Source of the DNA: Nitrospirota bacterium
Lineage (GTDB): Bacteria > Nitrospirota > Nitrospiria > Nitrospirales > Nitrospiraceae
DNA length: 64,000 nucleotides
Direction: 5' to 3'
NCBI GenBank assembly: GCA_963701855.1
Contig: CAVPBK010000003.1
Coordinates: forward strand, 1-64,000
The notes under the pieces are model-generated. The model did no database searches. It worked only from the letters and a program-made list of their open reading frames with translations, and was not told where the DNA came from. How positions within the stretch are numbered: the stretch's first letter is position 1; every line of letters begins with the position of its first letter. The translations under genes and the position numbers were made by a program. Positions 22,995 to 47,178 of the stretch are shown one piece after another.

Positions 22995-24818
22995 TACTGA
23001 TAATGCTGGGCTTGGGTGAGGAAAAGCGTAGCGTGAGCCCCTGCCGTAGCATCAACTCATCATGGGTTCCCCGTTCCACAATTTGGCCGTGATCGAGGAC
23101 AAAAATACAGTCGGCCATTTTGACAGTAGCCAGTCGATGACTGATCAAAATCGCCATACGCCCTTGAGTGAGTTCGTGAAACCGCTCGAACAATTCCGCT
23201 TCGGCCTTGGCATCCATCGCGCTGGTAGGCTCGTCGAGAATCAGGATCTGAGAATCGCGAAGGATGGCCCTGGCGAGCGCTACTTTTTGCCATTCCCCGA
23301 TGCTCAGTTCATGCCCGCCGTCGAACAGCTTGCCGAGCAATGACTCGTACCCCTTCGGCAAACGCTCGATGGCCTCATGGATCCCAGCCTGTTGGCCGCC
23401 TGCGTGACGGCGGAAAGGTCGATGTCGGGGGATCTCAGGCCCAACGAGATGTTGTCCTTGGCCGAAAACTGGAACTTCACAAAGTCCTGAAAAATTCCGC
23501 TGACGGCGCCACGGACATCGGCAAGGGGATAGTTCCGAAGATCTTCACCATCGACCGTGATGCGCCCCCCCGACGGATCGTACAGACGGCATAGGAGCTT
23601 CACCAGCGTCGTCTTCCCCGCCCCATTGGCTCCGACAAACGCGACATGTTCGCCGGGTCTGATCGTAAAGGTGAACTCCTGGATCGCCACACGTTCTTCA
23701 TGCGGGTATTGGAAGGACACATGATCGAATGTAATCCCCTGCGCGATCGGTTGGGGAAACAACTTCGGATGTGCCGACTTCGGCAAACGAGACTGAATAC
23801 CCAGAAACTCATCCAACGTGGTTAGGAACAAATTGCTCTCATAGAGGCTGGACACACTCTGTCCCAAACTCTCCAGGAATCCGGAGGCCCGCTGCACCGC
23901 CTGGAAAAACATGACGAGGTCGCCCACGGTGAGCAGCCCCTGAAACGTTCGGAACGCCACAAAACTGTAGACCCCGAACACACCGGCCACGCCGATGATC
24001 TGCGCGGCAAAACCCGCGAGCGCCCATCGGCGCTCTAACGCGATCCGTTCTCGACGCAGCACTGATCGCGCGTCTTGGAACCATTGCCGCAACCGAGGGC
24101 CGAGGTCGAACAGCCGGATTTCTTTCGCTGCAATCGCTTGGGTCAGCAGCATATTGACGTACCAGGCTTTCCGCTCAAGCGGCGTCCGCTCGCGCTCCCA
24201 GGCAAACAGCCGATTGGATTGCTGCAGACGGACGAAAAAGTACGGGATGGCCGTCAGCATCAAGATCGGGATCACCCCCCAATGCAACCACCAGAGTATG
24301 GCTGCCATCGCAAACAGTGAAATGGCATCCTGGCCAAATTGGAGCAAGGCGTTGAGAATCGCCGTCGGACGATAAGGCGCTTCTTCTTGTGCGCGATGGA
24401 GCGTATCTTGATAGCGCGCATTCTCGTAGTACTCAAGATCGACCTCGACGGACTTTGCCTGAAGGAGTGCGTGCATATGATCCGTGACGACTTGAGCATG
24501 AATCCTTGAAATCAGAGAGGCCACGCCGGTGAGCATGGCACTGGCCACCGCGACACCTGCCAACCCAGCAAGAATCATGGCCATCCCGCTCAAGGAGCCT
24601 TCGGCTGATGGAGCCTTGAGCCCTTCGGCCACGGCATCGATCAACAACTTCGTCAGATACAGCGCCACCAGCGGAAGAAGGCCTTGGATCACGCGCACCA
24701 CGATACTGCCGATTGCCAGACTCGGGCTGCTCTGCCACACAAACAAGAGAGCGTGGCGAAGCGTCAGGAGGAAGGGGCGGATGCGATTCAGAATGATGTT
24801 CATCGGTGACGGGAACAC
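22995..24818 (-). pseudogene. ABC exporter, frameshifted left copy
   Basis: 1-nt deletions near 23392 (T-run) and 23035 relative to 43840-45666. Confidence 0.8.
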
Positions 24819-24833
24819 GTGATGAATGCCTCG

Positions 24834-25304
24834 TCAGGACATCGTCGTCCTGTTGTTCTGACGCCGAAGGGCAGAGGCCTGCGTCCCAACTGTCGGATCC
24901 GGAGGATGCGAAAAGGTAACGGTGAACCGTTGCCAATGCTGGCCCGTCTCGTGAAAAGGCTGGCCATCCAATGTGAGCCACGCATGGCCATCGAGATTCG
25001 AGACTTCTTTTCTTACACCACAATGAAAGAGAACCGGATACCCCAATCGCCGGGCGAACCAATAGAGAGCCAGCGACCGTGGGAAGCAATTCCCTTTTTT
25101 GTTATAGGGAAACAGTTGAAGCCAGCGATCTACATAGCAGACCAGATCCCCCATCACTGCCTCGTCGGGTCTTCCCGTTGTCGAGCGAGGGTTTAATCGG
25201 TCCAGCACCAGTGGCAAACTCTTGACCCGCAACAAGAGACGAATCCACGACACTACCAGGCCTGCGCGCAGCAGGGTCCAATACTTTTTTACGAATCGGA
25301 TCAT
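24834..25304 (-). CDS. Lasso B2-type leader peptidase (left copy)
   Basis: CFPRSLAL and HAW transglutaminase-like motifs. Confidence 0.85.
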   Translation of the reverse strand: MIRFVKKYWTLLRAGLVVSWIRLLLRVKSLPLVLDRLNPRSTTGRPDEAVMGDLVCYVDRWLQLFPYNKKGNCFPRSLALYWFARRLGYPVLFHCGVRKEVSNLDGHAWLTLDGQPFHETGQHWQRFTVTFSHPPDPTVGTQASALRRQNNRTTMS

Positions 25305-25578
25305 AGTGCGTTCAGTGTAGCAAGCCTCAATGAGAATTCCAGCATCCGCCGTTTCCAAATCCAAGACCACGCGCTCTGATAATCCTGGTGCCCCATGGGA
25401 GGCGCTCAACCTCCCGTCGCAACCCACGAGGCATGGCTGTGGGCCGTGATGTATTTCCAATTTCTTCGGCAGAGCAATTAAAGACAATACAGACCATAGC
25501 GAGTGACGCAGCAGGCCAACCATTTCCTGTGTGGGACTAGACAGATGGGCTTCCCAGAAGGTTCAAACCAGAAGATGA

Positions 25579-26802
25579 CTACCCACCGTGCTCAATCCAA
25601 CGATTGATAGCGCCACGAATCGTGGAGGGAAACAGACTCCTCATGGTCCGGTGAAGGGGGAGAACGAGCCGAGCAAGACGCGGAAGGGAGGTGCGCCAGC
25701 GAAACCAGGCTGGAGGGGTTATGACCATAGGATTCTGGTCATGACACAACTGCAGGCCAAACCACCAGCGCTCCCACCACGAATCTTTCAATGAGAAATA
25801 GAGCGCAACTGCCTGTGCCTCATTCACACCGGCACGATGATCTGCCAGGAGAGTGGATGGCATACGGTGGGACAGCATCTGCACATCTGAATCGGCGGAG
25901 AGCCGCGCGAGAACCGTCTTGGGCAGTGGGGCATCCAACACCAGATGCGCGAGCGACAACCCCATAGACAGCAGGCGTCGGCAGCGCCACCTCGATGCGC
26001 TCGAGAAGATCCGATCCCAGTCCAGTTGGTCCTGTGCGCGAAGCAGCTCGGCGACATCGCACACCCATTTGAGCGAGTCCCATGCATGCTTCGACCCATG
26101 GACACACAGGACGATCAATAGATCTTCCGGGGTCAGTCCTTGTACCGTCTTGTTCGCAAGCGGAACAGCCGTTCGGCGCTGCCAGAACTCGGGACGATCC
26201 AACTGAAACGCAAAGTGCTCACCTGCCATCACCCACTGAAGATCGACGCGAAAGAGCGTGCGCTTCTTGATAAACACATGGTAAGGCCCATCCTCATGGT
26301 CCCTCTCACCAGGATCAGAAGAAGGGTCTTTCCTCTCATAGCCCCGCTCCAACAAGATGGCGTGCGCTTCCGCAATGGAGCCTTTGGGAACAAGCAGGTC
26401 CATGTCGCTAAAGTCGCGAAGCGTCAGATCGCCATAGACCGAGGACGCCAGGGTCGCCCCTTTGATGGGTATGACCGGCACTCCATTCGCGGCAAACGCG
26501 TCGCACAAGACGACGAGTTCCTGGACGAGCAACCGGTTGAGCAAGGCACCGGCTTGCGTCCTCTGGCGTAACTGAGTCAACGATTCGGCAGGCACAAGGT
26601 CGGAACAAAGCGTGGACAGATTCCGATACAACAGGGGGCCCACACCATGATATCGAGCCAGGTCGAGGACAAATTCCCAGTCAAGCGGCCCTTGCACTCT
26701 CTGCCGGATACGGGCCTTGAGCTCATCAGTCACAACCGTACGGGCACACCAGACCAAGAGCTCCGATTCCGGTCGCAATGAGAACTGCCTGGTCGTCATC
26801 AT
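25579..26802 (-). CDS. Nucleotidyltransferase, NTP_transf_5 type (left copy)
   Basis: IKGATLA...R.FSDMDLL motif. Confidence 0.85.
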   Translation of the reverse strand: MMTTRQFSLRPESELLVWCARTVVTDELKARIRQRVQGPLDWEFVLDLARYHGVGPLLYRNLSTLCSDLVPAESLTQLRQRTQAGALLNRLLVQELVVLCDAFAANGVPVIPIKGATLASSVYGDLTLRDFSDMDLLVPKGSIAEAHAILLERGYERKDPSSDPGERDHEDGPYHVFIKKRTLFRVDLQWVMAGEHFAFQLDRPEFWQRRTAVPLANKTVQGLTPEDLLIVLCVHGSKHAWDSLKWVCDVAELLRAQDQLDWDRIFSSASRWRCRRLLSMGLSLAHLVLDAPLPKTVLARLSADSDVQMLSHRMPSTLLADHRAGVNEAQAVALYFSLKDSWWERWWFGLQLCHDQNPMVITPPAWFRWRTSLPRLARLVLPLHRTMRSLFPSTIRGAINRWIEHGG

Positions 26803-27836
26803 CTTCGTTGCTCAAGCAGCGGCGTGATCAACTTCGGCAAGTCGAGGATATCGTGGCCGAAATGCAAGCGGTAACAGTCCACCTGCTGCACCAGGCTCGC
26901 TAAGACTTGAAATTCTCGTCTGGCCACCTCTGGATCGTAGACCAATAACGCCTGTGGGAGGAGGACTTCCAGGGCCCGGCTCTTGGGGAGGAGCTCAAGG
27001 TGACTGTGAGGGGCATCGACGACATGAGGGAACAGCATGATGGCCGGCTGACAGCGGTCGCCCACCGAGGTCGGATACAGATCCTCGGCATGAAAAGACC
27101 GCTTGGGTGAACCGGGATGAAGCACGTGATCAGGCGCATCCAGGAGTTCCGGGAAAAAGGCGATCGTCGCTTCGGTGACGTTAATCTTGGTGGGAAAGGG
27201 GAGCACCTCCACATGCGTCCCGGCATCTCGAATCAACGGATGATCATCCGAGAGATACCGATAGCCCGAGCGGAGCAGCGAGATAAAGGACGTCGTCTTG
27301 CCGCGGCCGCTATTCCCTGGGATCAAGACTCCACGGCCATGTTTCTCCAGCGCAGTCGCATGGATCGTATAGAGCCCACGGCGTCGTAAGAGTTCGATCA
27401 AGGCGAGGTGAAAGAAATATTCGATCAAGTTCGCGTGCATGGTCTCCGGCTTGATCAGATAGCCGTCAGCCTTGCCCTGCTCGCCATCAATCACCAGGAC
27501 TCCGGCATCGAAAAAGTCCGCAATCAACCGCCCGCCATCCTGAATCACCTCGTAGGGCAACCCGGTCTCCCGCCGATCCCCGACCGCTGCACCCGTTCCG
27601 GAAGATAATTGACGCGCCGATGAAGATATCGTCAGCGGAATGTCCGCTCGTTCCTGCACAGCCTGGAAGCACAAGGTGAGAGAGGCTGACTCCTCAAGGG
27701 AGTCCCGCCGAAAATGCCTCAGAAACTCATTCACCGGTGCGGCCAACAGGGGCGACGCCGTGGCATATCTCACCGCCGTGCCGTAGAGGGAAAATAGAGA
27801 CTCGGCCATAGGCTTTTCGACCACGGTCATCGTCAT
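26799..27836 (-). CDS. HprK-related kinase (left copy)
   Basis: HATA, GNSGRGKTT and LSDD motifs. Confidence 0.85.
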   Translation of the reverse strand: MTMTVVEKPMAESLFSLYGTAVRYATASPLLAAPVNEFLRHFRRDSLEESASLTLCFQAVQERADIPLTISSSARQLSSGTGAAVGDRRETGLPYEVIQDGGRLIADFFDAGVLVIDGEQGKADGYLIKPETMHANLIEYFFHLALIELLRRRGLYTIHATALEKHGRGVLIPGNSGRGKTTSFISLLRSGYRYLSDDHPLIRDAGTHVEVLPFPTKINVTEATIAFFPELLDAPDHVLHPGSPKRSFHAEDLYPTSVGDRCQPAIMLFPHVVDAPHSHLELLPKSRALEVLLPQALLVYDPEVARREFQVLASLVQQVDCYRLHFGHDILDLPKLITPLLEQRR

Positions 27837-27933
27837 ACTGTTCCCCCACTGATGATTGTCACCTACGCCGTCACGCCTCGTGAGAAAAACGGCTGGCCGA
27901 TTCTTATGAATCGACCAGCCCATGGTGACTTAT

Positions 27934-28077
27934 CTAGCGATGGCCATGGAAAAAACCAAACAAACGGCCAAACGAGAAGTTCCCATGATGACCGCCAGAA
28001 GCCTTCGCAGTGATGTCCCGCAGCAACTCGTGCGTTACGAGCACTGGCTGGACATACACCTCTTTCTTTTCATTCAC
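27934..28077 (-). CDS. RiPP precursor peptide, 47 aa (left copy)
   Basis: Same peptide as 40579-40722, with a synonymous CAT/CAC His codon difference. Confidence 0.85.
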   Translation of the reverse strand: MNEKKEVYVQPVLVTHELLRDITAKASGGHHGNFSFGRLFGFFHGHR

Positions 28078-28083
28078 TCTTTC

Positions 28084-28425
28084 TCACCTCCTTTCCTGTT
28101 GAAGTAGCCCCTCCTTGACCAATTGGTTGATCAGGGCAACGAGATCGTCCAGGGCCCGATCAGGAGAGACCTCAAAGCGGTCGCACAGGACCGCATGAAT
28201 GTCACTGACGGTGTTGTGGCCGGTACAGTGGTCCCATATGACGCTCCCCAACCGGTTCAGGGTGTAGTACCGCCCGGTACTGAGATCCAACAGCACCGTC
28301 TCGCCCTCCATGCTCGTGCCCTGCACATCAGGGCTGGGCCATAGGATGGTCCGATCCAGCATCGTGATGTCGACGACAGGCTCGGAGGCAATCGGGGGTG
28401 GAGCTACCTGCAGTGGGTCCGACAT
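28084..28425 (-). CDS. PqqD-family RiPP recognition element (left copy)
   Basis: GETVLLDL..GRYYTLN..G..IW motif. Confidence 0.88.
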   Translation of the reverse strand: MSDPLQVAPPPIASEPVVDITMLDRTILWPSPDVQGTSMEGETVLLDLSTGRYYTLNRLGSVIWDHCTGHNTVSDIHAVLCDRFEVSPDRALDDLVALINQLVKEGLLQQERR

Positions 28426-34570: not shown

Positions 34571-34639
34571 GGCCACCCCTACAGACCATCGCAGGGTTCC
34601 ACTTATGAATAAGTGTAATGTGCAAGGAGAAATTTTGGC

Positions 34640-36376
34640 ATGGCAATCGTTACAGTAAAAGCCTACTCCGAGAACACATCAGACTTCAAAATAACCAGAA
34701 ATGAAATCCTGATTTCCATAGTTCAAGAGAATGTTTGGTCCACACAATTTGATCTTCGTATCCCAACGCCTAATGAAGACACGAATCGTATTCAGGTCAC
34801 CTGCTTGTTTTGTGCTGAAGAAGCATACTTCCTTAGCCATGATCGCCAAATACTTCCTTTATCTTCTAAGGCATCACCTCCCTTTCCTGTAGGTTGTATT
34901 CTTTGGTTACAAGAAGGGGATATGCTGTGCCAAATTGATTTGCCTAAATATCCATATTTGAGGCTGTGCAAACAAGGAAACCAGGTCACTGCTACGTTTG
35001 TAATTCAAGATAGATTGGGTTCAGGGCTTATTCTCTGGGGCGACTCTAAGATTAGAAAACCTCCTATTATTAAGAAACAAATCCACATTAGGGCAAACAG
35101 ACTCAGATCACTTCAGGAAGCTGCTTGGCTTGAACCATATCCGAACGGTGCGCGTTCTGTTATTTGTTTAACTGACCACCCAGATTTTGATACCGTTCCA
35201 AAACTTCGCCTACAACACGAGCTTTTTTCTGAAAACAGTTTTCGTATTACAAAGGGGGTATTCCCTAGCAGTGATTATGGGTCAGGTAAAATGGAGCCTG
35301 GTTTAGATGTCCCTGAATATAAAAACTACATTGACAAGATGTATGAAAGCGGCTCTGAAATAGCCTACCATGGTCTAAGTCCACGGAAAAATCTTCCCTC
35401 ACTCTCGGAGTGTTTGCGTAGAATTCAAATGATGAGCATGTATTCTCCAAAAACATGGATTGATCACGGGTGTGGAGCGTACCTATTTTCAAGAGATGCT
35501 GTTTTTAAAGAAGGGGACGGCTTGTTGGACATATTAAGTAAAGCCGGAATTGAAAACTACTGGTCCTATACCGATGTTTGGGAAAATCCGGTACGGCATT
35601 TAGATGTTTGGGAGCATAGAAAAGTATTCAGCGCCTTCTCAAATTTCTTGTCGTTCTTGTGGGACACAGAGCGCGTGAGCGCCCCGCTGATGGCTTACTA
35701 TGGCAGTTCTGTATATAAGAACTTGTTAAGCCCTAACCATTTACATCATATAAAAGAGCCGTGGAGAATGGGTGCATGGAAACTTGTTGCTGAGCATAAT
35801 CGCCGCCTAAAGTATTATCATGAAAATCCAATGGTTCTTTATGATTTAAGCGGACAATCTAGTCTCATGAGCGATCAGAGCATATGGGTTTTTGATACAG
35901 TGCTGCTCAATCATTTAGCGTTTCAACTGAGGCCTGCGAATATTGATTTACTATGCCAGCAGAATGGCTTGTTAGTGGCCCATTGTTACTTTGGTCATCA
36001 AAGAAATAGATATGGGACAATGAACTGTTTTGTTAACGATGGCAATCAGCTATCACTGATTCCGGAATTTATTGAAGCTGTTAAGAATATCTCGGAAAAG
36101 CAAAGTCAAAGGGAGTTAGTTACGTTACCTTTTAATGCATTGCGTAATGCATTAACCAATTTCGTCAATGCATCATTAATACGTACTTCAAGTGGCTGGG
36201 AAATAAAGGCCATCAATGCAATTGTAGTCAGCCAAAATTCTATACCAATCCTGGAACCAATTAGGCAATGGTGCAAAGGGAAATTGTATTACGCGGAAGT
36301 AGAAGGGCAATCAGTACTTCCGATGCCAGTTCAAGGTATTCATCATGATGACCGCATACCGGTGGCGATTCAGTAG
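34640..36376 (+). CDS. AT-rich protein with a polysaccharide-deacetylase/NodB-like central domain
   Basis: 578-aa ORF with AAGGAG RBS; YPNGARSVICLTDHPD, EIAYHG and WIDHG motifs; visibly lower GC than its flanks. Confidence 0.6.
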   Translation: MAIVTVKAYSENTSDFKITRNEILISIVQENVWSTQFDLRIPTPNEDTNRIQVTCLFCAEEAYFLSHDRQILPLSSKASPPFPVGCILWLQEGDMLCQIDLPKYPYLRLCKQGNQVTATFVIQDRLGSGLILWGDSKIRKPPIIKKQIHIRANRLRSLQEAAWLEPYPNGARSVICLTDHPDFDTVPKLRLQHELFSENSFRITKGVFPSSDYGSGKMEPGLDVPEYKNYIDKMYESGSEIAYHGLSPRKNLPSLSECLRRIQMMSMYSPKTWIDHGCGAYLFSRDAVFKEGDGLLDILSKAGIENYWSYTDVWENPVRHLDVWEHRKVFSAFSNFLSFLWDTERVSAPLMAYYGSSVYKNLLSPNHLHHIKEPWRMGAWKLVAEHNRRLKYYHENPMVLYDLSGQSSLMSDQSIWVFDTVLLNHLAFQLRPANIDLLCQQNGLLVAHCYFGHQRNRYGTMNCFVNDGNQLSLIPEFIEAVKNISEKQSQRELVTLPFNALRNALTNFVNASLIRTSSGWEIKAINAIVVSQNSIPILEPIRQWCKGKLYYAEVEGQSVLPMPVQGIHHDDRIPVAIQ

Positions 36377-36393
36377 CGGACAAACTCCGCGGG

Positions 36394-36411
36394 CTTGACG
36401 GGGGAGCTTAC
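36394..36411. repeat. Isolated copy of the IS-end-like repeat
   Basis: cttgacgggggagcttac is a 17/18 inverted match to 34512-34529. Confidence 0.6.
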
Positions 36412-36460
36412 GATCGGAGGGGTACTCTGAAGAAAAAACCGAAAAAGACGGGGAACGACG

Positions 36461-39193
36461 TTAGGGACTAGGATTGAGGATGACTCTGAAGATGCGGTGG
36501 TTAGATTCGCCATAGTTGCCATTTGCCACATAGATATACCCATCCTGCCCCAGCACATTCAATCCGTGCATGACCGCGATCAACGCACCATTTCCACCGG
36601 GGTAGGCGATCGTATGACTGGAGAGGGCTGTCAACTCTGCTCCACCAAGCACGATTCGATGAAGTTGGCCGAAGTTGTAATCGGCGAACAGTAAGTTGTT
36701 GTAATATTGCGCCGGATAGGCGGAATCTTCTCTGATTGTGACGATCCCGGTTGGCGCAATGGTGGGGGTGGTGGAGGTGCCGAAGGTGATGATAGGATCA
36801 ATCCACCGTGGATCATTGCAAATTCCTAGACAAAGAGGGTATCCATAATTCCCGCCGGCAATGATCCTATTAATCTGATCATCAGTGGTATCACCGTTCT
36901 CGGTCTGCCACAAGTCATTCGTATGGGGATGGAACGTGAACCCGAAGCTATTGCGATGGCCATAACTGTAGATCGCGGAGAAAGGATACAGAAGATTATT
37001 CGGAGGATTAATGAAGGGATTGTCGGACGGAATTCCTCCATTCGGATTGATCCGCAACATTTTTCCTCTAAGCGTACTCAAGCTCTGTGAATCCCTTACT
37101 TCGTTGTCCCCTACAAAAATATAAAGCATTCTGTCCTGGCCGAACTGGAGAATGCCTCCGTTGTGAGGGTTGCCGGCAGGAATGTTGCCAAGAATCACTG
37201 TGGGCGGATCGCTTGTGGCCACAGTATATCCATTCGAATCAGTTGTGGCAGTTAACCGAACCACTCGGTTCTTCGGACCGGATGCGGTGGTGTAGTACAC
37301 ATACACATAGTGGTTATCGCTGAAACCGGGATCGACTGCGATGCCGAGCAACCCCTTTTCAACCCCGGTCACAAAATCATCCTTAGTGGAGGTGAAAGTG
37401 TAAAACGGTACAGATTGCAACTTCCACGGAGGCGTGGCGGTCGGCGTGACCACCTGGATATTACCGGTAATTAGTTCAGTCACAAAGATCCGTCCGTCCG
37501 GAGCCGTGGCCATCGCGACCGGGAAATTCAAGCCGCTCGCAACTTCTAGGAGGGAAAAATTTCCGCTCGTCTCAGTCGCGATGGTAAAATTAAGAGTTTT
37601 CTGCGTTGTTGGCAACTCTATATCCGATTGATCCACCAGCACGAATTTGACCTGATGAGAACCGGATGCTAAGGCATTGAGTTGAATTGAACTGCCGGAC
37701 TTCCAATGCACGGCGTGGGTATGACCGTACTGCTGGGTATTGGGGTCCGGATAACGAACCCCGCTCGTATCGCCAATTTCGGTGATCACTGGTCCATCGT
37801 AGAATTTGTAGATGGCGCGGTCATCGTCGACGTAGAAATGCATCCGTGGCTGAGTGGCCGAGTGCGGTACTGGAGAATTCTGAATATTGAACGAGACCGG
37901 CACAGGCCCGGGCGGCAAGGGAGCCCCTTGGGCAGGACTATTGATGGTCAATGTTGGAGGAGCAGGTTGAGCCTGAATGCTGATGTTCAGGATGGGCGGG
38001 TTGGCCTCCGCGTTCTGCAGGTCAATGTGACTAGAAGTGGCAAGAACAAGTCGAATCGAATGGCAACCGCTTGGGAGGTCGGTAATCTCGAACGAACTGT
38101 TGCTCAGCCAGGTGATGTTGGTAACAGGCTGTCCGCTGTTATCAAGTACCTTTTTGGTGTCTCCGTTGAAGAAGTGGTTCGTGGTGGTTCCGCCGTCCAG
38201 ATAGATATGGAGATGAGGGGCCCCCTGACCTCCGATCGTAGAATCCTGGGCTGTAAACGACACGTCGACAGGGTCCAATGGCAATGAAGCTCCCTGTGAT
38301 GGGCTCGTGATGGTCAACGGCGGAAAGGGAAACGAGGAGGCGAGGATCGTGATCGGCACCGAGTCGGGCGTGGCCTCCTTGTTAACAAATTCGTTATCTG
38401 AGGCAGTGGCTAACCTCACAGTGACTTGATGTGTGCCAGGAGACAATCCGTTCAGTCGAAACGAAGTGGGACTTTGCCATTGAACATCGGGGGTGGGTTG
38501 TCTGTTGTCGTCTACCACCTTGTTGGATTGTCCGTTGTTGCATTGTCCGTTGAAGAAATGGCGAGTTGCTCCCCCATCCACCGTGATGTGGAGGTGCTGC
38601 TGCCCCTGTCCTCCGACGACGAAGTGCTGAACAGCGAACTCTACGATAACCGAAAACGATCCGAGATCCGGATCGGTGGGAGTCGTGACCGTGAGGGTGG
38701 CCGGCGGCGGCTCGCTTCCTAAAAGCGAAACTAAAAGATCTTCAACGCCCAAGATCACATTAAGAAGCGGGTTCTGGGGCGTCGCTCTCCCGCTACTCAT
38801 CGTGACGGCTCCCAAATCAAGAGATCCCGCCGTCTGCATAGTGAACACGTTTGTCGGTGGATTCCCACCATAGAGAGGGAACGTCTGGCCTGCGCTAAAG
38901 AAGACAATCTCGACCGGAAGCCCGACCGGAATATTTGAGAGAGCAAATGGGAACGGAGGAGGGCCGGGTAGAGGCGCGGTATCAAATTGAGAAATGAGGG
39001 CCTTCGTGTCGGCCCGTAACACCTTGATGACGGTCCCGGAGACCGTCCCGGTGACGGTTGTGGAACCAGTAGCTGGCGCAAGGGGAGTGGGGGTACTTCC
39101 TCCACTAGACCCGCCGCCGCTGCATGAACTCAGAGCAAGCAGGAGTGTGGCGCAGGTCAAGAGCTTACTGAACAAGTTGGTCAATACCTTCAT
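36461..39193 (-). CDS. Lipoprotein with three repeated His-motif beta domains and a C-terminal glucose/sorbosone (PQQ-type) dehydrogenase propeller
   Basis: LSSC lipobox; HLHITVDGG, HLHIYLDGG and MHFYVDDD repeats; EKGLLGIAVDP, HNGG, GKMLRIN, YSYGHRN and GGNYGYP motifs. Confidence 0.85.
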   Translation of the reverse strand: MKVLTNLFSKLLTCATLLLALSSCSGGGSSGGSTPTPLAPATGSTTVTGTVSGTVIKVLRADTKALISQFDTAPLPGPPPFPFALSNIPVGLPVEIVFFSAGQTFPLYGGNPPTNVFTMQTAGSLDLGAVTMSSGRATPQNPLLNVILGVEDLLVSLLGSEPPPATLTVTTPTDPDLGSFSVIVEFAVQHFVVGGQGQQHLHITVDGGATRHFFNGQCNNGQSNKVVDDNRQPTPDVQWQSPTSFRLNGLSPGTHQVTVRLATASDNEFVNKEATPDSVPITILASSFPFPPLTITSPSQGASLPLDPVDVSFTAQDSTIGGQGAPHLHIYLDGGTTTNHFFNGDTKKVLDNSGQPVTNITWLSNSSFEITDLPSGCHSIRLVLATSSHIDLQNAEANPPILNISIQAQPAPPTLTINSPAQGAPLPPGPVPVSFNIQNSPVPHSATQPRMHFYVDDDRAIYKFYDGPVITEIGDTSGVRYPDPNTQQYGHTHAVHWKSGSSIQLNALASGSHQVKFVLVDQSDIELPTTQKTLNFTIATETSGNFSLLEVASGLNFPVAMATAPDGRIFVTELITGNIQVVTPTATPPWKLQSVPFYTFTSTKDDFVTGVEKGLLGIAVDPGFSDNHYVYVYYTTASGPKNRVVRLTATTDSNGYTVATSDPPTVILGNIPAGNPHNGGILQFGQDRMLYIFVGDNEVRDSQSLSTLRGKMLRINPNGGIPSDNPFINPPNNLLYPFSAIYSYGHRNSFGFTFHPHTNDLWQTENGDTTDDQINRIIAGGNYGYPLCLGICNDPRWIDPIITFGTSTTPTIAPTGIVTIREDSAYPAQYYNNLLFADYNFGQLHRIVLGGAELTALSSHTIAYPGGNGALIAVMHGLNVLGQDGYIYVANGNYGESNHRIFRVILNPSP

Positions 39194-40230: not shown

Positions 40231-40572
40231 ATGTCGGACCCACTGCAGGTAGCTCCACCCCCGATTGCCTCCGAGCCTGTCGTCGACATCACGATGCTGG
40301 ATCGGACCATCCTATGGCCCAGCCCTGATGTGCAGGGCACAAGCATGGAGGGCGAGACGGTGCTGTTGGATCTCAGTACCGGGCGGTACTACACCCTGAA
40401 CCGGTTGGGGAGCGTCATATGGGACCACTGTACCGGCCACAACACCGTCAGTGACATTCATGCGGTCCTGTGCGACCGCTTTGAGGTCTCTCCTGATCGG
40501 GCCCTGGACGATCTCATTGCCCTGATCAACCAATTGGTCAAGGAGGGGCTACTTCAACAGGAAAGGAGGTGA
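40231..40572 (+). CDS. PqqD-family RiPP recognition element (lasso B1-like)
   Basis: GAGGAGG RBS before ATG 40231; GETVLLDLSTGRYYTLNRLGSVIW...L..EGLL motif. Confidence 0.9.
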   Translation: MSDPLQVAPPPIASEPVVDITMLDRTILWPSPDVQGTSMEGETVLLDLSTGRYYTLNRLGSVIWDHCTGHNTVSDIHAVLCDRFEVSPDRALDDLIALINQLVKEGLLQQERR

Positions 40573-40578
40573 GAAAGA

Positions 40579-40722
40579 GTGAATGAAAAGAAAGAGGTGT
40601 ATGTCCAGCCAGTGCTCGTAACGCATGAGTTGCTGCGGGACATCACTGCGAAGGCTTCTGGCGGTCATCATGGGAACTTCTCGTTTGGCCGTTTGTTTGG
40701 TTTTTTCCATGGCCATCGCTAG
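40579..40722 (+). CDS. RiPP precursor peptide, 47 aa, with a lasso-type leader
   Basis: AGGAGGT RBS 8 nt before GTG. Translation MNEKKEVYVQPVLVTHELLRDITA-KASGGHHGNFSFGRLFGFFHGHR, with YxxPxL and Thr at -2. Below the ORF-track size cutoff. Confidence 0.88.
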   Translation: MNEKKEVYVQPVLVTHELLRDITAKASGGHHGNFSFGRLFGFFHGHR

Positions 40723-40735
40723 ATAAGTCAGCATG

Positions 40736-40772
40736 GGCTGGTCGATTCATAAGAATCGGCCAGCCGTTTTTC
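40736..40772 (+). terminator. Hairpin / intrinsic terminator after the precursor gene
   Basis: ggctggtcgattc-ataa-gaatcggccagcc followed by gtttttc. Confidence 0.75.
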
Positions 40773-40819
40773 TCACGAGACGTGACGGCGTAGGTGACAA
40801 TCATCAGTGGGGGAACAGT

Positions 40820-41857
40820 ATGACGATGACCGTGGTCGAAAAGCCTATGGCCGAGTCTCTATTTTCCCTCTACGGCACGGCGGTGAGATATGCCACGGCG
40901 TCGCCCTTGTTGGCCGCACCGGTGAATGAGTTTCTGAGGCATTTTCGGCGGGACTCCCTTGAGGAGTCAGCCTCTTTCACCTTGTGCTTCCAGGCTGTGC
41001 AGGAACGAGCGGACATTCCGCTGACGATATCTTCATCGGCGCGTCAATTATCTTCCGGAACGGGTGCAGCGGTCGGGGATCGGCGGGAGACCGGGTTGCC
41101 CTACGAGGTGATTCAAGATGGTGGGCGGTTGATTGCGGACTTTTTCGATGCCGGAGTCCTGGTGATGGATGGCGAGCAGGGCAAGGCTGACGGCTATCTG
41201 ATCAAGCCGGAGACCATGCACGCGAGCTTGATCGAATATTTCTTTCACCTCGCCTTGATCGAACTCTTACGACGCCGTGGGCTCTATACGATTCATGCGA
41301 CTGCGCTGGAGAAACATGGCCGTGGAGTCTTGATTCCAGGGAATAGCGGCCGCGGCAAGACGACGTCCTTTATCTCGCTACTCCGCTCGGGCTATCGATA
41401 TCTCTCGGATGATCTTCCGTTGATTCGAGATGCCGGGAGGCATGTGGAGGTGCTCCCCTTTCCCACCAAGATTAACGTCACCGAAGCGACGATCGCCTTT
41501 TTCCCGGAACTCCTGGATGCGCCTGATCACGTGCTTCATCCCGGTTCGCCCAAGCGGTCTTTTCATGCCGAGGATCTGTATCCGACCTCGGTGGGCGACC
41601 GCTGTCAGCCGGCCATCATGCTGTTCCCCCATGTCGTCGATGCCCCTCACAGTCACCTTGAGCTCCTCCCCAAGAGCCGGGCCCTGGAAGTCCTCCTCCC
41701 ACAGGCATTGCTGGTCTATGATCCAGAGGTGGCTAGACGAGAATTTCAAGTCTTAGCGAGCCTGGTGCAGCAGGTGGACTGTTACCGCTTGCATTTTGGC
41801 CACGATATCCTCGACTTGCCGAAGTTGATCACGCCGCTGCTAGAGCAACGAAGATGA
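40820..41857 (+). CDS. HprK-related (RiPP-modifying) kinase
   Basis: IHATA, Walker A GNSGRGKTT and YLSDD motifs. Start moved to ATG 40820 (GGGGGA RBS, downstream of the hairpin). Confidence 0.85.
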   Translation: MTMTVVEKPMAESLFSLYGTAVRYATASPLLAAPVNEFLRHFRRDSLEESASFTLCFQAVQERADIPLTISSSARQLSSGTGAAVGDRRETGLPYEVIQDGGRLIADFFDAGVLVMDGEQGKADGYLIKPETMHASLIEYFFHLALIELLRRRGLYTIHATALEKHGRGVLIPGNSGRGKTTSFISLLRSGYRYLSDDLPLIRDAGRHVEVLPFPTKINVTEATIAFFPELLDAPDHVLHPGSPKRSFHAEDLYPTSVGDRCQPAIMLFPHVVDAPHSHLELLPKSRALEVLLPQALLVYDPEVARREFQVLASLVQQVDCYRLHFGHDILDLPKLITPLLEQRR

Positions 41858-43077
41858 TAGCGACCAGGCAGTTCTCATTGCGACCGGAATCGGAGCTCTT
41901 GGTCTGGTGTGCCCGTACGGTCGTGACCGATGAGCTCAAGGTCCGTATCCAGCAGAGAGTGCAAGAGCCGCTTGACTGGGAATATGTCCTCAACCTGGCT
42001 CAATATCATGGTGTGGGCCCCCTGTTGTATCGGAATCTGTCCACACTTTGTTCCGATCTCGTGCCTGCCGAATCGTTGACTCAGTTACGCCAGAGGACAC
42101 AAGCCGGTGCCTTGCTCAACCGGTTGCTCGTCCAGGAACTCGTCGTCTTATGCGACGCGTTTGTCGCGCAGGGAGTGCCGGTCATGCCCATTAAAGGGGC
42201 GACCCTGGCGTCCTCAGTCTATGGCGATCTGACGCTTCGCGACTTTAGCGACATGGACCTGCTCATTCCCAAAGGCTCCATTGCAGAAGCGCACGCCATC
42301 TTGTTGGCGCGGGGCTATGAGAGGAAAGACCCTTCTTCTGATCCTGGTGAGAGGGACCATGAGGATGGGCCTTACCATGTGTTTATCAAGAAGCGCACGC
42401 TCTTTCGTGTCGATCTCCAGTGGGTGATGGCAGGTGAGCACTTTGCGTTTCAGTTGGATCGTCCCGAGTTCTGGCAGCGCCGAACGGCTGTTCCGCTTGC
42501 GAACAAGACGGTACAAGGACTGACCCCGGAAGATCTATTGATCGTCCTGTGTGTCCATGGGTCGAAGCATGCATGGGACTCGCTCAAATGGGTATGCGAT
42601 GTCGCCGAGCTGCTTCGTGCACACAACCAACTGGACTGGGATCGGATCTCCTCGAGCGCATCGAGGTGGCGCTGCCGACGCCTGCTGTCTATGGGGTTGT
42701 CGCTCGCACATCTGGTGTTGGATGCCCCACTACCCAAGACGGTTCGCGCGCGGCTCTCCGCCGACTCAGATGTGCAGATGCTGTCCCACCGTATGCCATT
42801 CACTCTCCTGGCAGATCGTCGTGCCGGCGTGAATGAGGCACAGGCAGTTGCGCTCTATTTCACGTTGAAAGATTCGTGGTGGGAGCGTTGGCGGTTTGGC
42901 CTGATGCTGTGTCGTGACCAGAGTCCTATGGTCACAACCCCTCCAGCCTGGTTTCGCTGGCGCATCTCCCTTCCGCGTCTTGCTCGGCTCGTTCTCCCCC
43001 TTCACCGGACCATGAGGAGTCTGTTTCCCTCCACGATTCGGGGCGCTATCAATCGTTGGGTCGAGCACGGTGGTTAG
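41854..43077 (+). CDS. Nucleotidyltransferase family protein (NTP_transf_5 type)
   Basis: PIKGATLASSVY..LR.FSDMDLL, VDLQW and HGSKH..LKW.CD motifs; ATGA overlap with the kinase. Confidence 0.85.
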   Translation: MIATRQFSLRPESELLVWCARTVVTDELKVRIQQRVQEPLDWEYVLNLAQYHGVGPLLYRNLSTLCSDLVPAESLTQLRQRTQAGALLNRLLVQELVVLCDAFVAQGVPVMPIKGATLASSVYGDLTLRDFSDMDLLIPKGSIAEAHAILLARGYERKDPSSDPGERDHEDGPYHVFIKKRTLFRVDLQWVMAGEHFAFQLDRPEFWQRRTAVPLANKTVQGLTPEDLLIVLCVHGSKHAWDSLKWVCDVAELLRAHNQLDWDRISSSASRWRCRRLLSMGLSLAHLVLDAPLPKTVRARLSADSDVQMLSHRMPFTLLADRRAGVNEAQAVALYFTLKDSWWERWRFGLMLCRDQSPMVTTPPAWFRWRISLPRLARLVLPLHRTMRSLFPSTIRGAINRWVEHGG

Positions 43078-43353
43078 TCATCTTCTGGTTTGAACCTTCT
43101 GGGAAGCCCATCTGTCGAGTCCCACACAGAAAATGGTTCGGATCTGCTGCGTCACTCGCTATGGTCTGCATTGTCTTTAATTGCTCTGCCGAAGAAATTG
43201 GAAATACATCACGGCCGACAGCCATGCCTCGTGGGTCGCGACGGGAGGTTGGGCGCCTCCCATGGCGCACCAGGATTATCAGAGCGCGTGGTCTTGGATT
43301 TGGAAACGGCGGATGCTGGAATTCTCATTGAGGCTTGCTACACTGAACGCACT

Positions 43354-43824
43354 ATGATCCGATTCGTAAAAAAGTATTGGACCCTGCTGCGCGCAGGCCT
43401 GGTAGTGTCGTGGATTCGTCTCTTGTTGCGGGTCAAGAGTTTGCCACTGGTGCTGGACCGATTAAATCCTCGCTCGACAATGGAAAGACCCGACGAGGCA
43501 GTGATGGGGGATCTGGTCTGCTATGTAGATCGCTGGCTTCAACTGTTTCCCTATAACAAAAAGGGGAATTGCTTCCCACGGTCGCTGGCTCTCTATTGGT
43601 TCGCCAGGCGATTGGGGTATCCGGTTCTCTTTCATTGTGGTGTAAGAAAAGAAGCCTCGAATCTCGATGGCCATGCGTGGCTCACATTGGATGGCCAGCC
43701 TTTTCACGAGACGGGCCAGCATTGGCAACGGTTCACCGTTACCTTTTCGCATCCTCAGGATCCGACAGTTGGGACGCAGGCCTCTGCCCTCCGGCGTCAG
43801 AACAACAGGACGACGATGTCCTGA
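43354..43824 (+). CDS. Lasso B2-type leader peptidase (transglutaminase-like)
   Basis: NCFPRSLAL (catalytic Cys), GV..GHAWL (His); probable start MIRFVKKYW. Confidence 0.88.
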   Translation: MIRFVKKYWTLLRAGLVVSWIRLLLRVKSLPLVLDRLNPRSTMERPDEAVMGDLVCYVDRWLQLFPYNKKGNCFPRSLALYWFARRLGYPVLFHCGVRKEASNLDGHAWLTLDGQPFHETGQHWQRFTVTFSHPQDPTVGTQASALRRQNNRTTMS

Positions 43825-43839
43825 CGAGGCATTCATCAC

Positions 43840-45666
43840 GTGTTCCCGTCACCGATGAACATCATTCTGAATCGCATCCGCCCCTTCCTCCTGACGCTTC
43901 GCCACGCTCTCTTGTTTGTGTGGCAGAGCAGCCCGAGTCTGGCAATCGGCAGTATCGTGGTGCGCGTGATCCAAGGCCTTCTTCCGCTGGTGGCGCTGTA
44001 TCTGACGAAGTTGTTGATCGATGCCGTTGCCGAAGGGCTCAAGGCTCCATCAGCCGAAGGCTCCTTGAGCGGGATGGCCATGATTCTTGCTGGGTTGGCA
44101 GGTGTCGCGGTGGCCAGTGCCATGCTCACCGGCGTGGCCTCTCTGATTTCAAGGATTCATGCTCAAGTCGTCACGGATCATATGCACGCACTCCTTCAGG
44201 CAAAGTCCGTCGAGGTCGATCTTGAGTACTACGAGAATGCGCGCTATCAAGATACGCTCCATCGCGCACAAGAAGAAGCGCCTTATCGTCCGACGGCGAT
44301 TCTCAACGCCTTGCTCCAATTTGGCCAGGATGCCATTTCACTGTTTGCGATGGCAGCCATACTCTGGTGGTTGCATTGGGGGGTGATCCCGATCTTGATG
44401 CTGACGGCCATCCCGTACTTTTTCGTCCGTCTGCAGCAATCCAATCGACTGTTTGCCTGGGAGCGCGAGCGGACGCCGCTTGAGCGGAAAGCCTGGTACG
44501 TCAATATGCTGCTGACCCAAGCGATTGCAGCGAAAGAAATCCGGCTGTTCGACCTCGGCCCTCGGTTGCGGCAATGGTTCCAAGACGCGCGATCAGTGCT
44601 GCGTCGAGAACGGATCGCGTTAGAGCGCCGATGGGCGCTCGCGGGTTTTGCCGCGCAGATCATCGGCGTGGCCGGTGTGTTCGGGGTCTACAGTTTTGTG
44701 GCGTTCCGAACGTTTCAGGGGCTGCTCACCGTGGGCGACCTCGTCATGTTTTTCCAGGCGGTGCAGCGGGCCTCCGGATTCCTGGAGAGTTTGGGACAGA
44801 GTGTGTCCAGCCTCTATGAGAGCAATTTGTTCCTAACCACGTTGGATGAGTTTCTGGGTATTCAGTCTCGTTTGCCGAAGTCGGCACATCCGAAGTTGTT
44901 TCCCCAACCGATCGCGCAGGGGATTACATTCGATCATGTGTCCTTCCAATACCCGCATGAAGAACGTGTGGCGATCCAGGAGTTCACCTTTACGATCAGA
45001 CCCGGCGAACATGTCGCGTTTGTCGGAGCCAATGGGGCGGGGAAGACGACGCTGGTGAAGCTCCTATGCCGTCTGTACGATCCGTCGGGGGGGCGCATCA
45101 CGGTCGATGGTGAAGATCTTCGGAACTATCCCCTTGCCGATGTCCGTGGCGCCGTCAGCGGAATTTTTCAGGACTTTGTGAAGTTCCAGTTTTCGGCCAA
45201 GGACAACATCTCGTTGGGCCTGAGATCCCCCGACATCGACCTTTCCGCCGTCACGCAGGCGGCCAAACAGGCTGGGATCCATGAGGCCATCGAGCGTTTG
45301 CCGAAGGGGTACGAGTCATTGCTCGGCAAGCTGTTCGACGGCGGGCATGAACTGAGCATCGGGGAATGGCAAAAAGTGGCGCTCGCCAGGGCCATCCTTC
45401 GCGATTCTCAGATCCTGATTCTCGACGAGCCTACCAGCGCGATGGATGCCAAGGCCGAAGCGGAATTGTTCGAGCGGTTTCACGAACTCACTCAAGGGCG
45501 TATGGCGATTTTGATCAGTCATCGACTGGCTACTGTCAAAATGGCCGACTGTATTTTTGTCCTCGATCACGGCCAAATTGTGGAACGGGGAACCCATGAT
45601 GAGTTGATGCGACGGCAGGGGCTCTACGCCACGCTTTTCCTCACCCAAGCCCAGCATTATCAGTAG
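43840..45666 (+). CDS. ABC exporter, fused permease + ATPase
   Basis: TM domain, GANGAGKTT, LSIGEWQK, ILDEPT and SHRL motifs; no C39 peptidase domain. Confidence 0.92.
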   Translation: MFPSPMNIILNRIRPFLLTLRHALLFVWQSSPSLAIGSIVVRVIQGLLPLVALYLTKLLIDAVAEGLKAPSAEGSLSGMAMILAGLAGVAVASAMLTGVASLISRIHAQVVTDHMHALLQAKSVEVDLEYYENARYQDTLHRAQEEAPYRPTAILNALLQFGQDAISLFAMAAILWWLHWGVIPILMLTAIPYFFVRLQQSNRLFAWERERTPLERKAWYVNMLLTQAIAAKEIRLFDLGPRLRQWFQDARSVLRRERIALERRWALAGFAAQIIGVAGVFGVYSFVAFRTFQGLLTVGDLVMFFQAVQRASGFLESLGQSVSSLYESNLFLTTLDEFLGIQSRLPKSAHPKLFPQPIAQGITFDHVSFQYPHEERVAIQEFTFTIRPGEHVAFVGANGAGKTTLVKLLCRLYDPSGGRITVDGEDLRNYPLADVRGAVSGIFQDFVKFQFSAKDNISLGLRSPDIDLSAVTQAAKQAGIHEAIERLPKGYESLLGKLFDGGHELSIGEWQKVALARAILRDSQILILDEPTSAMDAKAEAELFERFHELTQGRMAILISHRLATVKMADCIFVLDHGQIVERGTHDELMRRQGLYATLFLTQAQHYQ

Positions 45667-45876: not shown

Positions 45877-47178
45877 ATGGCTCAAAAGAAAGAGACCGGA
45901 CGAAAGGTTGCGCTTGTTGGACTTGGTTATGTGGGGCTTCCTATCGCCGTTGCCTTCGGCAAGCGGGGAAAGGTCATCGGGTTCGATATCAACAAAGCAA
46001 AGATTGCAGAACTGCAGAGGGGCGTTGACCGAACGGGGGAAGTGTCGGCGGCCGACCTCAAAGTCGCTGATGTACAGTATACTTCGGAGCCTACCGACCT
46101 CAAGGCCGCCGACTTTATCATTGTGGCTGTTCCAACTCCGATCAATGAAGCGCTCCAGCCGGATCTCAAGGCGCTACGAATTGTCTCGGAATTGATCGGT
46201 AAAAACATGTCCCCTGGTACGATCGTTGTCTATGAGTCTACGGTGTACCCTGGAGTGACAGAGGATGTTTGTCTCCCTATTCTGGAAAAGACTTCCGGCC
46301 TCAAATCAGGCATTGACTTCAAGGTTGGATATTCACCGGAGCGCATCAATCCAGGGGACAAGGAGCATACTCTCGAGAAGATCGTCAAAGTCGTTTCGGC
46401 TCAAGATGCAGAGTCGCTTGAAGTCGTCGCGAATACCTATTCACTCGTCGTGAAGGCCGGGGTCCATCGGGCTTCAAGCATTAAGGTTGCGGAAGCAGCC
46501 AAGGTGATTGAGAACACGCAGCGCGATCTGAACATTGCATTGATGAACGAGCTGGCTCTCATTTTCCATCGTCTCGGAATCGATACCAAGTCGGTCTTAG
46601 ACGCTGCCGGGACGAAGTGGAACTTTCTGAAGTTTTTCCCAGGATTAGTCGGCGGACATTGTATTGGTGTGGACCCATATTATCTGACCGCTAAGGCTGA
46701 ATCGGTCGGCTATCACCCGCAAGTGATTCTGGCTGGTCGGCGCATCAATAACGGGATGGGAAAGTTCGTTGCAGAGCAAACGATAAAGCTGCTCGGTCAA
46801 CTTCCCCGGCCAGCCAACGAACTCAAGGTGGCAGTCTTAGGACTCACGTTTAAGGAAAATGTGCCGGATCTGCGCAACAGCAAAGTGCTCGATATTATCC
46901 AGGAGTTGCGTGAGTATGGGGTTCAAGTGTTGGTGCATGATCCGATCGCAGAACCGGAAGAGGCGGTCGCTGAATACGGAATTCATCTGCAGCAGTGGAA
47001 CGATCTGAAGAACGTCGATGGGATGGTTATTGCGGTGGCCCACCGCTCGTATGCGGAGATGGGCCTGCAGGAATTGCTCAAACCTCTCCGCAGTCAGCGG
47101 GAGGGCGTGGTTATTGATGTGAAATGTCTGCTTGATCAGGCGAAACTGCCCAAGACGCTCAAGTACTGGCGTTTATAA
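45877..47178 (+). CDS. UDP-N-acetylhexosamine 6-dehydrogenase (WbpO/TviB-like)
   Basis: [36 protein letters not shown] and [11 protein letters not shown] motifs. Confidence 0.92.
   Translation: MAQKKETGRKVALVGLGYVGLPIAVAFGKRGKVIGFDINKAKIAELQRGVDRTGEVSAADLKVADVQYTSEPTDLKAADFIIVAVPTPINEALQPDLKALRIVSELIGKNMSPGTIVVYESTVYPGVTEDVCLPILEKTSGLKSGIDFKVGYSPERINPGDKEHTLEKIVKVVSAQDAESLEVVANTYSLVVKAGVHRASSIKVAEAAKVIENTQRDLNIALMNELALIFHRLGIDTKSVLDAAGTKWNFLKFFPGLVGGHCIGVDPYYLTAKAESVGYHPQVILAGRRINNGMGKFVAEQTIKLLGQLPRPANELKVAVLGLTFKENVPDLRNSKVLDIIQELREYGVQVLVHDPIAEPEEAVAEYGIHLQQWNDLKNVDGMVIAVAHRSYAEMGLQELLKPLRSQREGVVIDVKCLLDQAKLPKTLKYWRL

Follow-up and report, generated by a model that had tools for sequence, protein, structure and literature searches.

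A lasso-type gene cassette without a cyclase in Nitrospira: a candidate pathway to a linear phosphorylated peptide

What might a lasso-type biosynthetic cassette produce when the macrolactam cyclase is missing from it? This question is raised by positions 40231-45666 (+ strand) of a Nitrospira contig, C3, whose positions 1-64000 are the 64,000-nucleotide stretch of DNA analyzed here (the window). Six co-oriented and closely packed genes encode, in order, a recognition element (RRE) for a peptide that is made by ribosomes and modified after translation (RiPP), a precursor peptide, a kinase, a nucleotidyltransferase, a B2 leader peptidase and an ATP-binding cassette (ABC) exporter. Our preferred answer, to which we assign a probability of roughly 0.7, is that they constitute a functional cyclase-free RiPP pathway that arose from phosphorylated-lasso machinery, and that its product is a linear, phosphorylated and exported peptide; the pathway would then be a B2-dependent analog of the linear polyphosphorylated peptide (LPP) systems of Bacillota. 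In effect, the cassette looks like the Bsf lasso cluster without its C gene, or like an LPP cluster in which B2 has replaced the signal-peptidase-like protease. Such a linear phosphorylated exported peptide had been proposed in the original prediction for this locus, and with the cyclase absent and the machinery both intact and conserved it is still the best reading.

Gene families were assigned by Pfam and NCBIfam profile matches to the window proteins, and by these matches all six genes of the original prediction are present. The discrete RRE (40231..40572, +) belongs to the PqqD family and is of the lasso B1 type (PF05402 PqqD, E 5e-19); its start at 40231 agrees with those of its relatives, and its top NCBIfam matches are the lasso PqqD chaperone models, under their cut-offs. 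When a profile of the Nitrospira RREs was compared with the Protein Data Bank (PDB), it scored 49 bits with PbaB1 (9x90), 45 with TbiB1, 32 with TfuB1 and 30 with LppB (9x8z), the PDB codes being assigned from excerpts of PMC13381572. The precursor gene (40579..40722, +), which encodes 47 residues, has a GTG start with GGAGG 8 nt upstream, and its product matches no Pfam or NCBIfam family. The transglutaminase-like B2 leader peptidase (43363..43824, +) scores 47 bits against a cut-off of 33 on the lasso_biosyn_B2 model NF033537 and matches PF13471 at E 6e-18. Its longest open reading frame (ORF) runs from 43090, but the aligned homologs begin near residue 92 of that ORF, which places the conserved start at about 43363; C161, H195 and E207 are invariant in 12 aligned sequences, and a PDB sequence search gave no match. 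The last gene (43840..45666, +) encodes an MsbA-like ABC exporter with fused permease and ATPase (PF00664 ABC_membrane and PF00005 ABC_tran). Its top NCBIfam match is MsbA, under that model's cut-off, and no C39 peptidase domain was found in it by the Pfam and NCBIfam scan. A family scan of the six cassette proteins found no signal-peptidase domain, B2 being the only peptidase among them; no search for the LPP signal peptidase LppS was made in the remaining genome.

With respect to the cyclase, there is no candidate for PF00733 (asparagine synthase) or NF033535 (lasso cyclase) within the window. Over the whole genome (4.30 Mb, 97% complete), PF00733 gives one strong match, on contig C4. The product of this gene, which adjoins a glycosyltransferase gene, reaches 420 bits against a cut-off of 267 on the glutamine-hydrolysing asparagine synthase model and 175 bits against a cut-off of 525 on NF033535; judged by these scores, it is of the AsnB type and not a lasso cyclase. 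The remaining PF00733 matches in the genome are weak (at most 26 bits, each over a short part of the model). The original prediction had noted the lack of an asparagine-synthetase-like gene and had proposed searching the whole genome with PF00733 and cyclase profiles; the outcome agrees with it, since neither window nor genome yielded a lasso cyclase. The closest complete relative, G178, likewise has a single asparagine synthase (PF00733), far from the cassette and with 138 bits on the cyclase model. Among 201 genomes of the family nearly all carry AsnB paralogs, the gene being single-copy, among the matches listed, in G000, G178, G187, G100 and G134.

The same is seen in the related loci, of which we fetched 96 (20 loci of 20 kb and 76 others; 92 are distinct). 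None of the 96 contains an asparagine-synthase-like gene by a scan in which PF00733 matched none of 70 ORFs from 14 of the first 20 loci, nor any of 51 representatives from the 52 BLAST clusters into which all 252 unassigned ORFs of at least 300 aa in the 96 loci fall; the 52nd cluster was covered by the 70-ORF scan. Whether orthologous clusters normally include a cyclase, the point that the original prediction had singled out as decisive against it, is thus answered in favor of a cyclase-free system. One candidate, a 476-aa "AsnB-like" neighbor in 37 loci, was considered as the missing cyclase and rejected: it has GATase and PRTase domains, is 80-90% identical to the genome's own purF, and is purF.

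A positive control is provided by another genome of the family, G142, which has a canonical lasso cluster (locus L150, C1:2719000-2738999, at 7545-13887 of the locus) in the order B1 – B2 – cyclase – precursor – methyltransferase – HprK-like kinase – nucleotidyltransferase. Because its 651-aa cyclase was found, at 504 bits on NF033535, the method is able to see lasso cyclases in this family. This cluster shares with the window's cassette the RRE, B2, the HprK-like kinase, a PF14907-like nucleotidyltransferase and a YxxPxL...T-x leader, but differs from it in the cyclase, the methyltransferase and a core that begins G-S-P-S-G-R-F-P-D, with Gly1 and Asp9. G142 also carries a cyclase-free cassette, 1.8 Mb from its lasso cluster, a pairing reminiscent of the LPP and paeninodin clusters that are reported to occur together in Bacilli.

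The presence of such a canonical, cyclase-bearing relative in the same family, and the fact that every part of our cassette except C is lasso-type, bring up the possibility of decay, in which a lasso cluster of the paeninodin or Bsf type would have lost its cyclase recently and would no longer function. The G142 enzymes are, however, only 26-36% identical to those of the window, so that the cluster in G142 is a distant paralogous system and neither an ortholog nor an ancestor. A recent loss also sits badly with the distribution of the cyclase-free layout, which is kept across genera. The kinase occurs in 86 of the 201 sampled Nitrospiraceae genomes at E <= 1e-5 (a tally that includes an unpublished genome, G006, with a weak match only), and in 68 at E <= 1e-78, with 17 of 39 genera represented. 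A sample from the whole phylum had it in 26 of 50 Nitrospiraceae genomes and in 2 of 250 genomes of other families, both of these matches being weak. A scan of genome contigs gave 131 matched stretches that encode a kinase relative; the best 80 were kept as 76 loci, of which one (L082) has "uncultured bacterium" for a title and the other 75 Nitrospira, Nitrospiraceae, Nitrospirota or Nitrospirae. The recurring gene order is RRE – peptide(s) – kinase – nucleotidyltransferase – B2 – ABC exporter, and the related cassettes mostly adjoin purF. In 53 loci the kinase gene is well flanked, with 4 kb or more before it and 6 kb or more after it; in 45 of them it is accompanied by RRE, peptide, nucleotidyltransferase and B2, and in 36 of those 45 by the ABC exporter as well. 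The grouping of these genes exceeds chance.

The window itself contains a second copy of the whole cassette, in mirror image (~23035..28425, -), on the other arm of a 68-kb quasi-palindrome. By tblastn identity, the mirror copy has a 99% identical RRE, an identical peptide, a 98.7% identical kinase, and a nucleotidyltransferase and B2 that are both 93% identical. The differences between the arms are mostly synonymous; for the kinase, the proportions of synonymous and nonsynonymous differences are pS 0.061 and pN 0.006. By this comparison, the two copies appear to be under purifying selection, which is not what would be expected of a decaying cluster. The ABC gene of the mirror copy is interrupted, a feature that decay could account for, but in the + copy the ORFs are all intact and the catalytic residues invariant. 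Since the leaders of the precursors are moreover near-invariant while their cores diversify, we regard decay as a very improbable explanation.

The precursor of the window consists of a 24-aa leader ending in ...HELLRDITA and a 23-aa core, KASGGHHGNFSFGRLFGFFHGHR, which begins with KAS, ends in HGHR, has Arg as its C-terminal residue and contains no Cys, Asp or Glu. Its 39 database homologs have a near-invariant leader and variable cores, in which residue 3 is Ser in 38 and Thr in one. Together with 146 ORFs from 82 loci, these homologs make up a set of 185 sequences with the leader motif, or 167 unique cores. The leader consensus common to the relatives is ...Y-x-x-P-x-[LV]-x-x-H-E-L-L-R-D-[IV]-T-[AG], and counted from the end of the leader its residues are Tyr -17, Pro -14, Leu -12 and Thr -2, a register that we take to be that of lasso leaders in general. 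The excerpts of PMC10368454 report the same Y/P/L/T register for lasso leaders. Because the leader residues stand in this register, the cut is placed after Ala-1; cleavage after ...DITA, as originally proposed, would fit it, with Thr at -2. Of the 167 cores, 126 have Ser at position 3, 25 have Tyr there and one has Thr, and 11 of the remaining 15 have Ser4. A total of 12 cores end in Ser and 31 have exactly two Cys; an Asp or Glu falls within positions 7-9 in 63, and 41 lack acidic residues altogether. The co-occurrence of cyclase absence with acid-free cores, which the original prediction had proposed to test, does not hold, since those 63 cores with Asp or Glu at 7-9 come from cyclase-free loci. 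The Nitrospira precursors are 36-60 aa in length.

Directly 3' of the precursor gene lies a terminator- or attenuator-like hairpin with a T-run (40736..40775, +), consisting of a 13-bp stem with 8 G-C pairs followed by GTTTTTC. A folding energy of -30 kcal/mol or lower is reached in the relatives by 84% of 136 distinct stretches of 90 nt that follow leader-motif ORFs, and by 20% of 300 stretches taken at random from those loci. Such frequent strong hairpins fit real, separately regulated precursor genes, and through the hairpin the precursor is probably transcribed in excess of the enzymes. A sediment RNA library contains one contig of 521 nt that matches 40278-40798 with 3 differences, a span that includes the end of the RRE gene along with the complete precursor gene and the hairpin; given that DNA carry-over is uncontrolled and there is no silent-stretch control, this is a weak hint of transcription, and gaps in such RNA cover are uninformative. 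No public sequencing run contains half or more of the cassette stretch, and the soil and sediment labels of runs with smaller shares are given no weight as to habitat.

The kinase ORF extends from 40733 to 41857 (+), and because its homologs are about 345 aa long the true start is probably at 40820. It matches TIGR04352 HprK_rel_A (E 6e-16) and PF07475 Hpr_kinase_C (E 6e-6), and in the PDB its best match, which lies over the P-loop, is the HPr kinase 1ko7. Across 15 Nitrospiraceae sequences, the GxxGxGK[T] and DD motifs are invariant, except for K180, which is nearly so. As listed in the excerpts of PMC10368454, the catalytic residues of BsfK share the spacing of the P-loop and DD motifs of the Nitrospira kinase; BsfK also has a His 15 residues before the first Gly, and this residue is found in the window's kinase too, outside the invariant columns. 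By analogy with LPP and Bsf, the likely phosphosite is the conserved core Ser3. It would not be a C-terminal Ser of the paeninodin or pseudomycoidin kind, considering that the window's peptide ends in Arg and that cores ending in Ser are few.

How does the cassette compare with the systems already described? What is said here of these comes from excerpts of the papers cited. In paeninodin and pseudomycoidin (Zhu et al. 2016, Zyubko et al. 2019, reviewed in PMC8498205), an HprK-homolog kinase acts on the C-terminal Ser of the linear precursor, and in pseudomycoidin an enzyme of the nucleotidyltransferase family adds one or two hexoses to the phosphate. Their clusters share with the cassette the HprK-homolog kinase, the nucleotidyltransferase-family gene, B1, B2 and the ABC exporter, but they have a cyclase and the phosphate is on the C-terminal Ser. 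The bsf lasso cluster of Bradymonas sediminis (Duan et al., Front Microbiol 2023, PMC10368454), which comprises genes A, B1, B2, C, D, K and N, comes closer. There, BsfK phosphorylates core Ser3 of the linear precursor and is stimulated by BsfB1, and the leader is removed by B2 together with B1. Of these genes, A, B1, B2, D, K and N have counterparts in Nitrospira, which also has the YxxPxL leader motif and Ser3, whereas bsfC has none, a lasso being the predicted product of bsf; the bsf leader has Ile at -2 where the Nitrospira leader has Thr. This likeness is drawn from gene content, motifs and residue spacing in the paper rather than from aligned protein sequences. Measured against a canonical lasso cluster, the cassette has B1, B2 and the leader motif but neither the cyclase nor a core with a small first residue and an acidic one at 7-9, the window's core having Lys1 and no Asp or Glu.

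The nearest counterpart in outcome would be LPP, the linear polyphosphorylated peptides of Bacillota published in May 2026 (Popov et al., Nat Commun 2026, PMC13381572). LPP clusters combine RRE, HprK-kinase, NTP-transferase and MsbA-type exporter without a cyclase, and the family is defined by the SipW-like signal peptidase LppS. Core Ser3 bears one to four phosphates, which are abolished by S3A, and LPP is restricted to Bacillota according to the authors (PMC13381572). Shared with the Nitrospira cassette are the discrete RRE, the HprK-like kinase, an NTP-transferase that is uncharacterized, the MsbA-like exporter, the lack of a macrolactam cyclase, a conserved YxxP leader with a variable C-terminal part, and the conserved Ser at core position 3. 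Set side by side, the LPP leader consensus YxxPxVLxHQxIxFETxxS and the Nitrospira leader match at Y, P, a hydrophobic residue, H, Q/E, I/L and T. The leader peptidase is different, however: LppS, a signal peptidase I of the archaeal type, in LPP, and a lasso-type B2 cysteine protease in Nitrospira. LPP precursors, of 35-200 aa, are cut after T, whereas the cut predicted for Nitrospira is after T-x; the hosts belong to Bacillota and Nitrospirota, respectively. Against the Nitrospira RRE profile, moreover, LppB falls below the lasso B1 proteins, and by these scores the window's RRE appears not to be of the LppB clade. Because the RRE is nearer to lasso B1 than to LppB, the protease is different and the phylum is different, the sequences suggest a separate derivation from lasso machinery, and the LPP-like pathway of Nitrospira was probably derived independently of the Bacillota clade. 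The proposal that the cassette represents a possibly undescribed RiPP class has nevertheless been overtaken by the publication of LPP. Judged by titles and abstracts, with the literature on Nitrospira RiPPs covered in part, none of the papers listed describes a cyclase-free cluster that depends on B2 or a RiPP of this type from Nitrospira.

It could be supposed that the product is closed or cross-linked by some other route, with the phosphate as an intermediate: through a trans-acting or unrecognized cyclase, through disulfides, or by elimination of phospho-Ser to dehydroalanine followed by a secondary ring. Chemistry of this kinase-then-elimination type is established for the class III and class IV lanthipeptides. 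The cores with exactly two Cys (31/167) or with Asp or Glu at positions 7-9 (63/167) would lend themselves to one or another of these routes, and some related Nitrospira cassettes add ATP-grasp and FA_hydroxylase-family proteins. The core of the window, on the other hand, offers neither Cys nor an acidic residue, its cassette contains no ATP-grasp, lyase or cyclase domain, and a second asparagine-synthase homolog that might act in trans is absent both from its own genome and from G178. In both characterized relatives, too, the phosphate persists on Ser3, according to the excerpts of PMC13381572 and PMC10368454. We consider closure by another route unlikely.

The nucleotidyltransferase gene (41854..43077, +), whose start overlaps the kinase stop by 4 nt, encodes the second putative tailoring enzyme, with 213 bits against a cut-off of 31 on PF14907 (NTP_transf_5). 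Its D133 and D135 are invariant in the alignment. A PDB sequence search gave no match. An AlphaFold2 model built on 20 sequences is confident (pLDDT 89, pTM 0.89), and its best Foldseek matches are MenT1, ANT(2'')-Ia, the CDP-ribitol phosphotransferase FKRP, and LnuA. As modeled, the core falls among the Pol-beta-type nucleotidyltransferases, a fold that would permit transfer of a nucleoside monophosphate or of a phospho-alcohol alike and does not decide between them. Nucleotidylation or phosphoglycosylation of the peptide is speculation, and the excerpts of PMC13381572 state that deleting LppN, the NTP-transferase of LPP, changed nothing detectable and that no activity was seen.

A sugar-related role has nevertheless to be weighed, as a gene for a TviB-like nucleoside diphosphate (NDP)-sugar dehydrogenase (45877..47178) lies 3' of the cassette and an epimerase gene further on. 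The peptide might then be a carrier or primer, with phospho-Ser3 built by the PF14907 enzyme into a phosphodiester-linked glycan for surface or exopolysaccharide biosynthesis. The resemblance of the modeled enzyme to FKRP, among others, would be in keeping with this, as would the location of LPP and paeninodin clusters of Bacilli in capsule loci (PMC13381572, in excerpt) and the addition of hexoses to phosphate by the pseudomycoidin transferase (PMC8498205, in excerpt). The MenT and ANT fold matches are, however, equal to or better than that with FKRP, LppN showed no activity in the account cited above, and neither the dehydrogenase nor a secretin occurs in any of the 96 related loci, which mostly lie beside purF instead. 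The original prediction had called the dehydrogenase a UDP-HexNAc dehydrogenase and seen in it a possible supplier of NDP-sugar; because it is found beside the cassette in 0/96 related loci, and is thus no conserved neighbor, we do not count it as part of the system. All told, a carrier or primer function seems to us improbable.

If the cassette is indeed a functional cyclase-free pathway, it might operate as follows. The RRE would bind the YxxPxL part of the 24-residue leader, as its family membership and the leader motif suggest. Aided by the RRE, the HprK-like kinase would then phosphorylate core Ser3, possibly several times, to judge from the conservation of this residue and the analogy with BsfK and LppK. 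The PF14907 enzyme may, speculatively, extend the phosphate to a phosphodiester-linked sugar, alditol phosphate or nucleotide. From the lasso register, the B2 cysteine peptidase would be expected to cut after Ala-1, with Thr at -2, and the ABC transporter would export a linear 23-residue cationic peptide, rich in Gly, His and Phe, that carries a phosphate handle. No macrolactam would be made, because a cyclase is missing and the core in the window lacks acidic residues.

Several points weigh against this reading. The kinase falls below the curated cut-off of every HprK-type model in Pfam and NCBIfam, and is therefore a distant relative of HprK. The 25 cores with Tyr3 are awkward, since LppK and BsfK are inactive on a Tyr3 variant (excerpts of PMC13381572 and PMC10368454). 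For the 63 cores with Asp or Glu at 7-9, ring formation by an unrecognized enzyme is possible. The cyclase scan of the related loci covered cluster representatives and not each ORF, and the genome, at 97% completeness, is not closed. In the mirror copy the ABC gene is in two pieces, as with a frameshift. The cassette appears from its sequence to stand outside the Bacillota LPP clade, so that the analogy with LPP may hide differences; and for the Nitrospira members the phosphorylation and the residue concerned, like the place of cleavage and the export, are predictions from sequence and analogy.

The relatives show some variation on the theme. Many Nitrospira have a second type of cassette (e.g. 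L048:6611-13199, L046:1500-8411 and L055:6455-11782) that adds to RRE, kinase and nucleotidyltransferase a RimK-like ATP-grasp, a conserved protein of about 340-430 aa without a family match and one or two FA_hydroxylase-family proteins; its cores read x-K-Y-[RK]-E-K-x-S-D-K, with Tyr at position 3. Phospho-RiPP chemistry and ATP-grasp cross-linking are possibly combined in this type. Cores of the form I-x-L-S-R-V are found in a third type, which has the order purF – B2 – RRE – peptide – kinase – nucleotidyltransferase. Within a few kb of the cassette, 17 of the 96 loci (e.g. L042:13440-14909, L043:5923-7404 and L070:4893-6563) have a gene for a PhoD-like phosphatase and 23 have one for an O-methyltransferase, while neither is near the window's copy. 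Elsewhere in the window's own genome, C4:269922-270536 (-) holds an orphan pair: an RRE gene (73% identical) and, with the core KASGGHHGN..., a precursor gene (84% identical). The pair has neither kinase, nucleotidyltransferase nor B2 in its vicinity and may be served in trans by the enzymes of C3. A further precursor-like stretch, at C12:43581-43697, has an in-frame stop.

As for the genomic surroundings, C3:1-68395 is a giant imperfect palindrome centered at about 34.3 kb, with arms that are 92-99.8% identical, and every gene of the window, the cassette included, is doubled in mirror image. Since the differences between the arms are mostly substitutions, and mostly synonymous, the arms are two really diverged alleles and not the product of read errors. 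Given that the fold-back begins precisely where the contig does, we suspect an assembly join of two strains and not a genuine inverted duplication. The center (31879-36776) is a low-GC island (0.43-0.44, vs about 0.55 elsewhere) with a 578-aa ORF (34640-36376) that has no Pfam or NCBIfam match; its mirror copy, shortened to 415 aa (32768-34015), has no Pfam match. Downstream of the cassette, and mirrored on the other arm, 47447-57123 encodes a set like that of type II secretion or of a type IV pilus: a secretin whose N-terminal part has tetratricopeptide repeats (TPR), a pseudopilin, a LysM protein, T2SS-F, a T2SS-E ATPase with MshEN, PilN and PilO. Past this set come two ORFs without a family match, the NAD-dependent epimerase (58629-59633) and an aldehyde dehydrogenase.

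Should the preferred reading of a functional cyclase-free pathway be right, lasso tailoring would here proceed without a lasso, around the classical B2 protease and in a phylum other than Bacillota, with the kinase present in about one third of the sampled Nitrospiraceae. Loss of the cyclase more than once is suggested, and linear RiPPs with a phosphate handle would be broader than published. The hypervariable cores, and the multiple precursor genes found in relatives, point to a secreted antagonistic, signaling or metal-binding role. One can go further, though only tentatively and with the odds somewhat against it, and propose that the Nitrospiraceae independently turned lasso machinery into family-wide, fast-diversifying linear phospho-RiPPs, in which the phosphate on Ser3 or Tyr3, elaborated by the PF14907 enzyme into a phosphodiester-linked group, is the constant handle and the cores are secreted effectors. 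The Nitrospiraceae are the main nitrite oxidizers and include the comammox bacteria. If the family-wide proposal is true, cores rich in Gly, His and aromatic residues, or with two Cys, would serve competition, signaling or metal binding among nitrifiers, and the sister cassettes with ATP-grasp and FA_hydroxylase-family proteins would be phospho-RiPP hybrids of an undescribed kind. These cassettes also offer natural material for working out the function of PF14907 enzymes, and they would give Nitrospira, which is central to nitrification and genetically hard to work with, a conserved yet highly variable secreted-peptide system.

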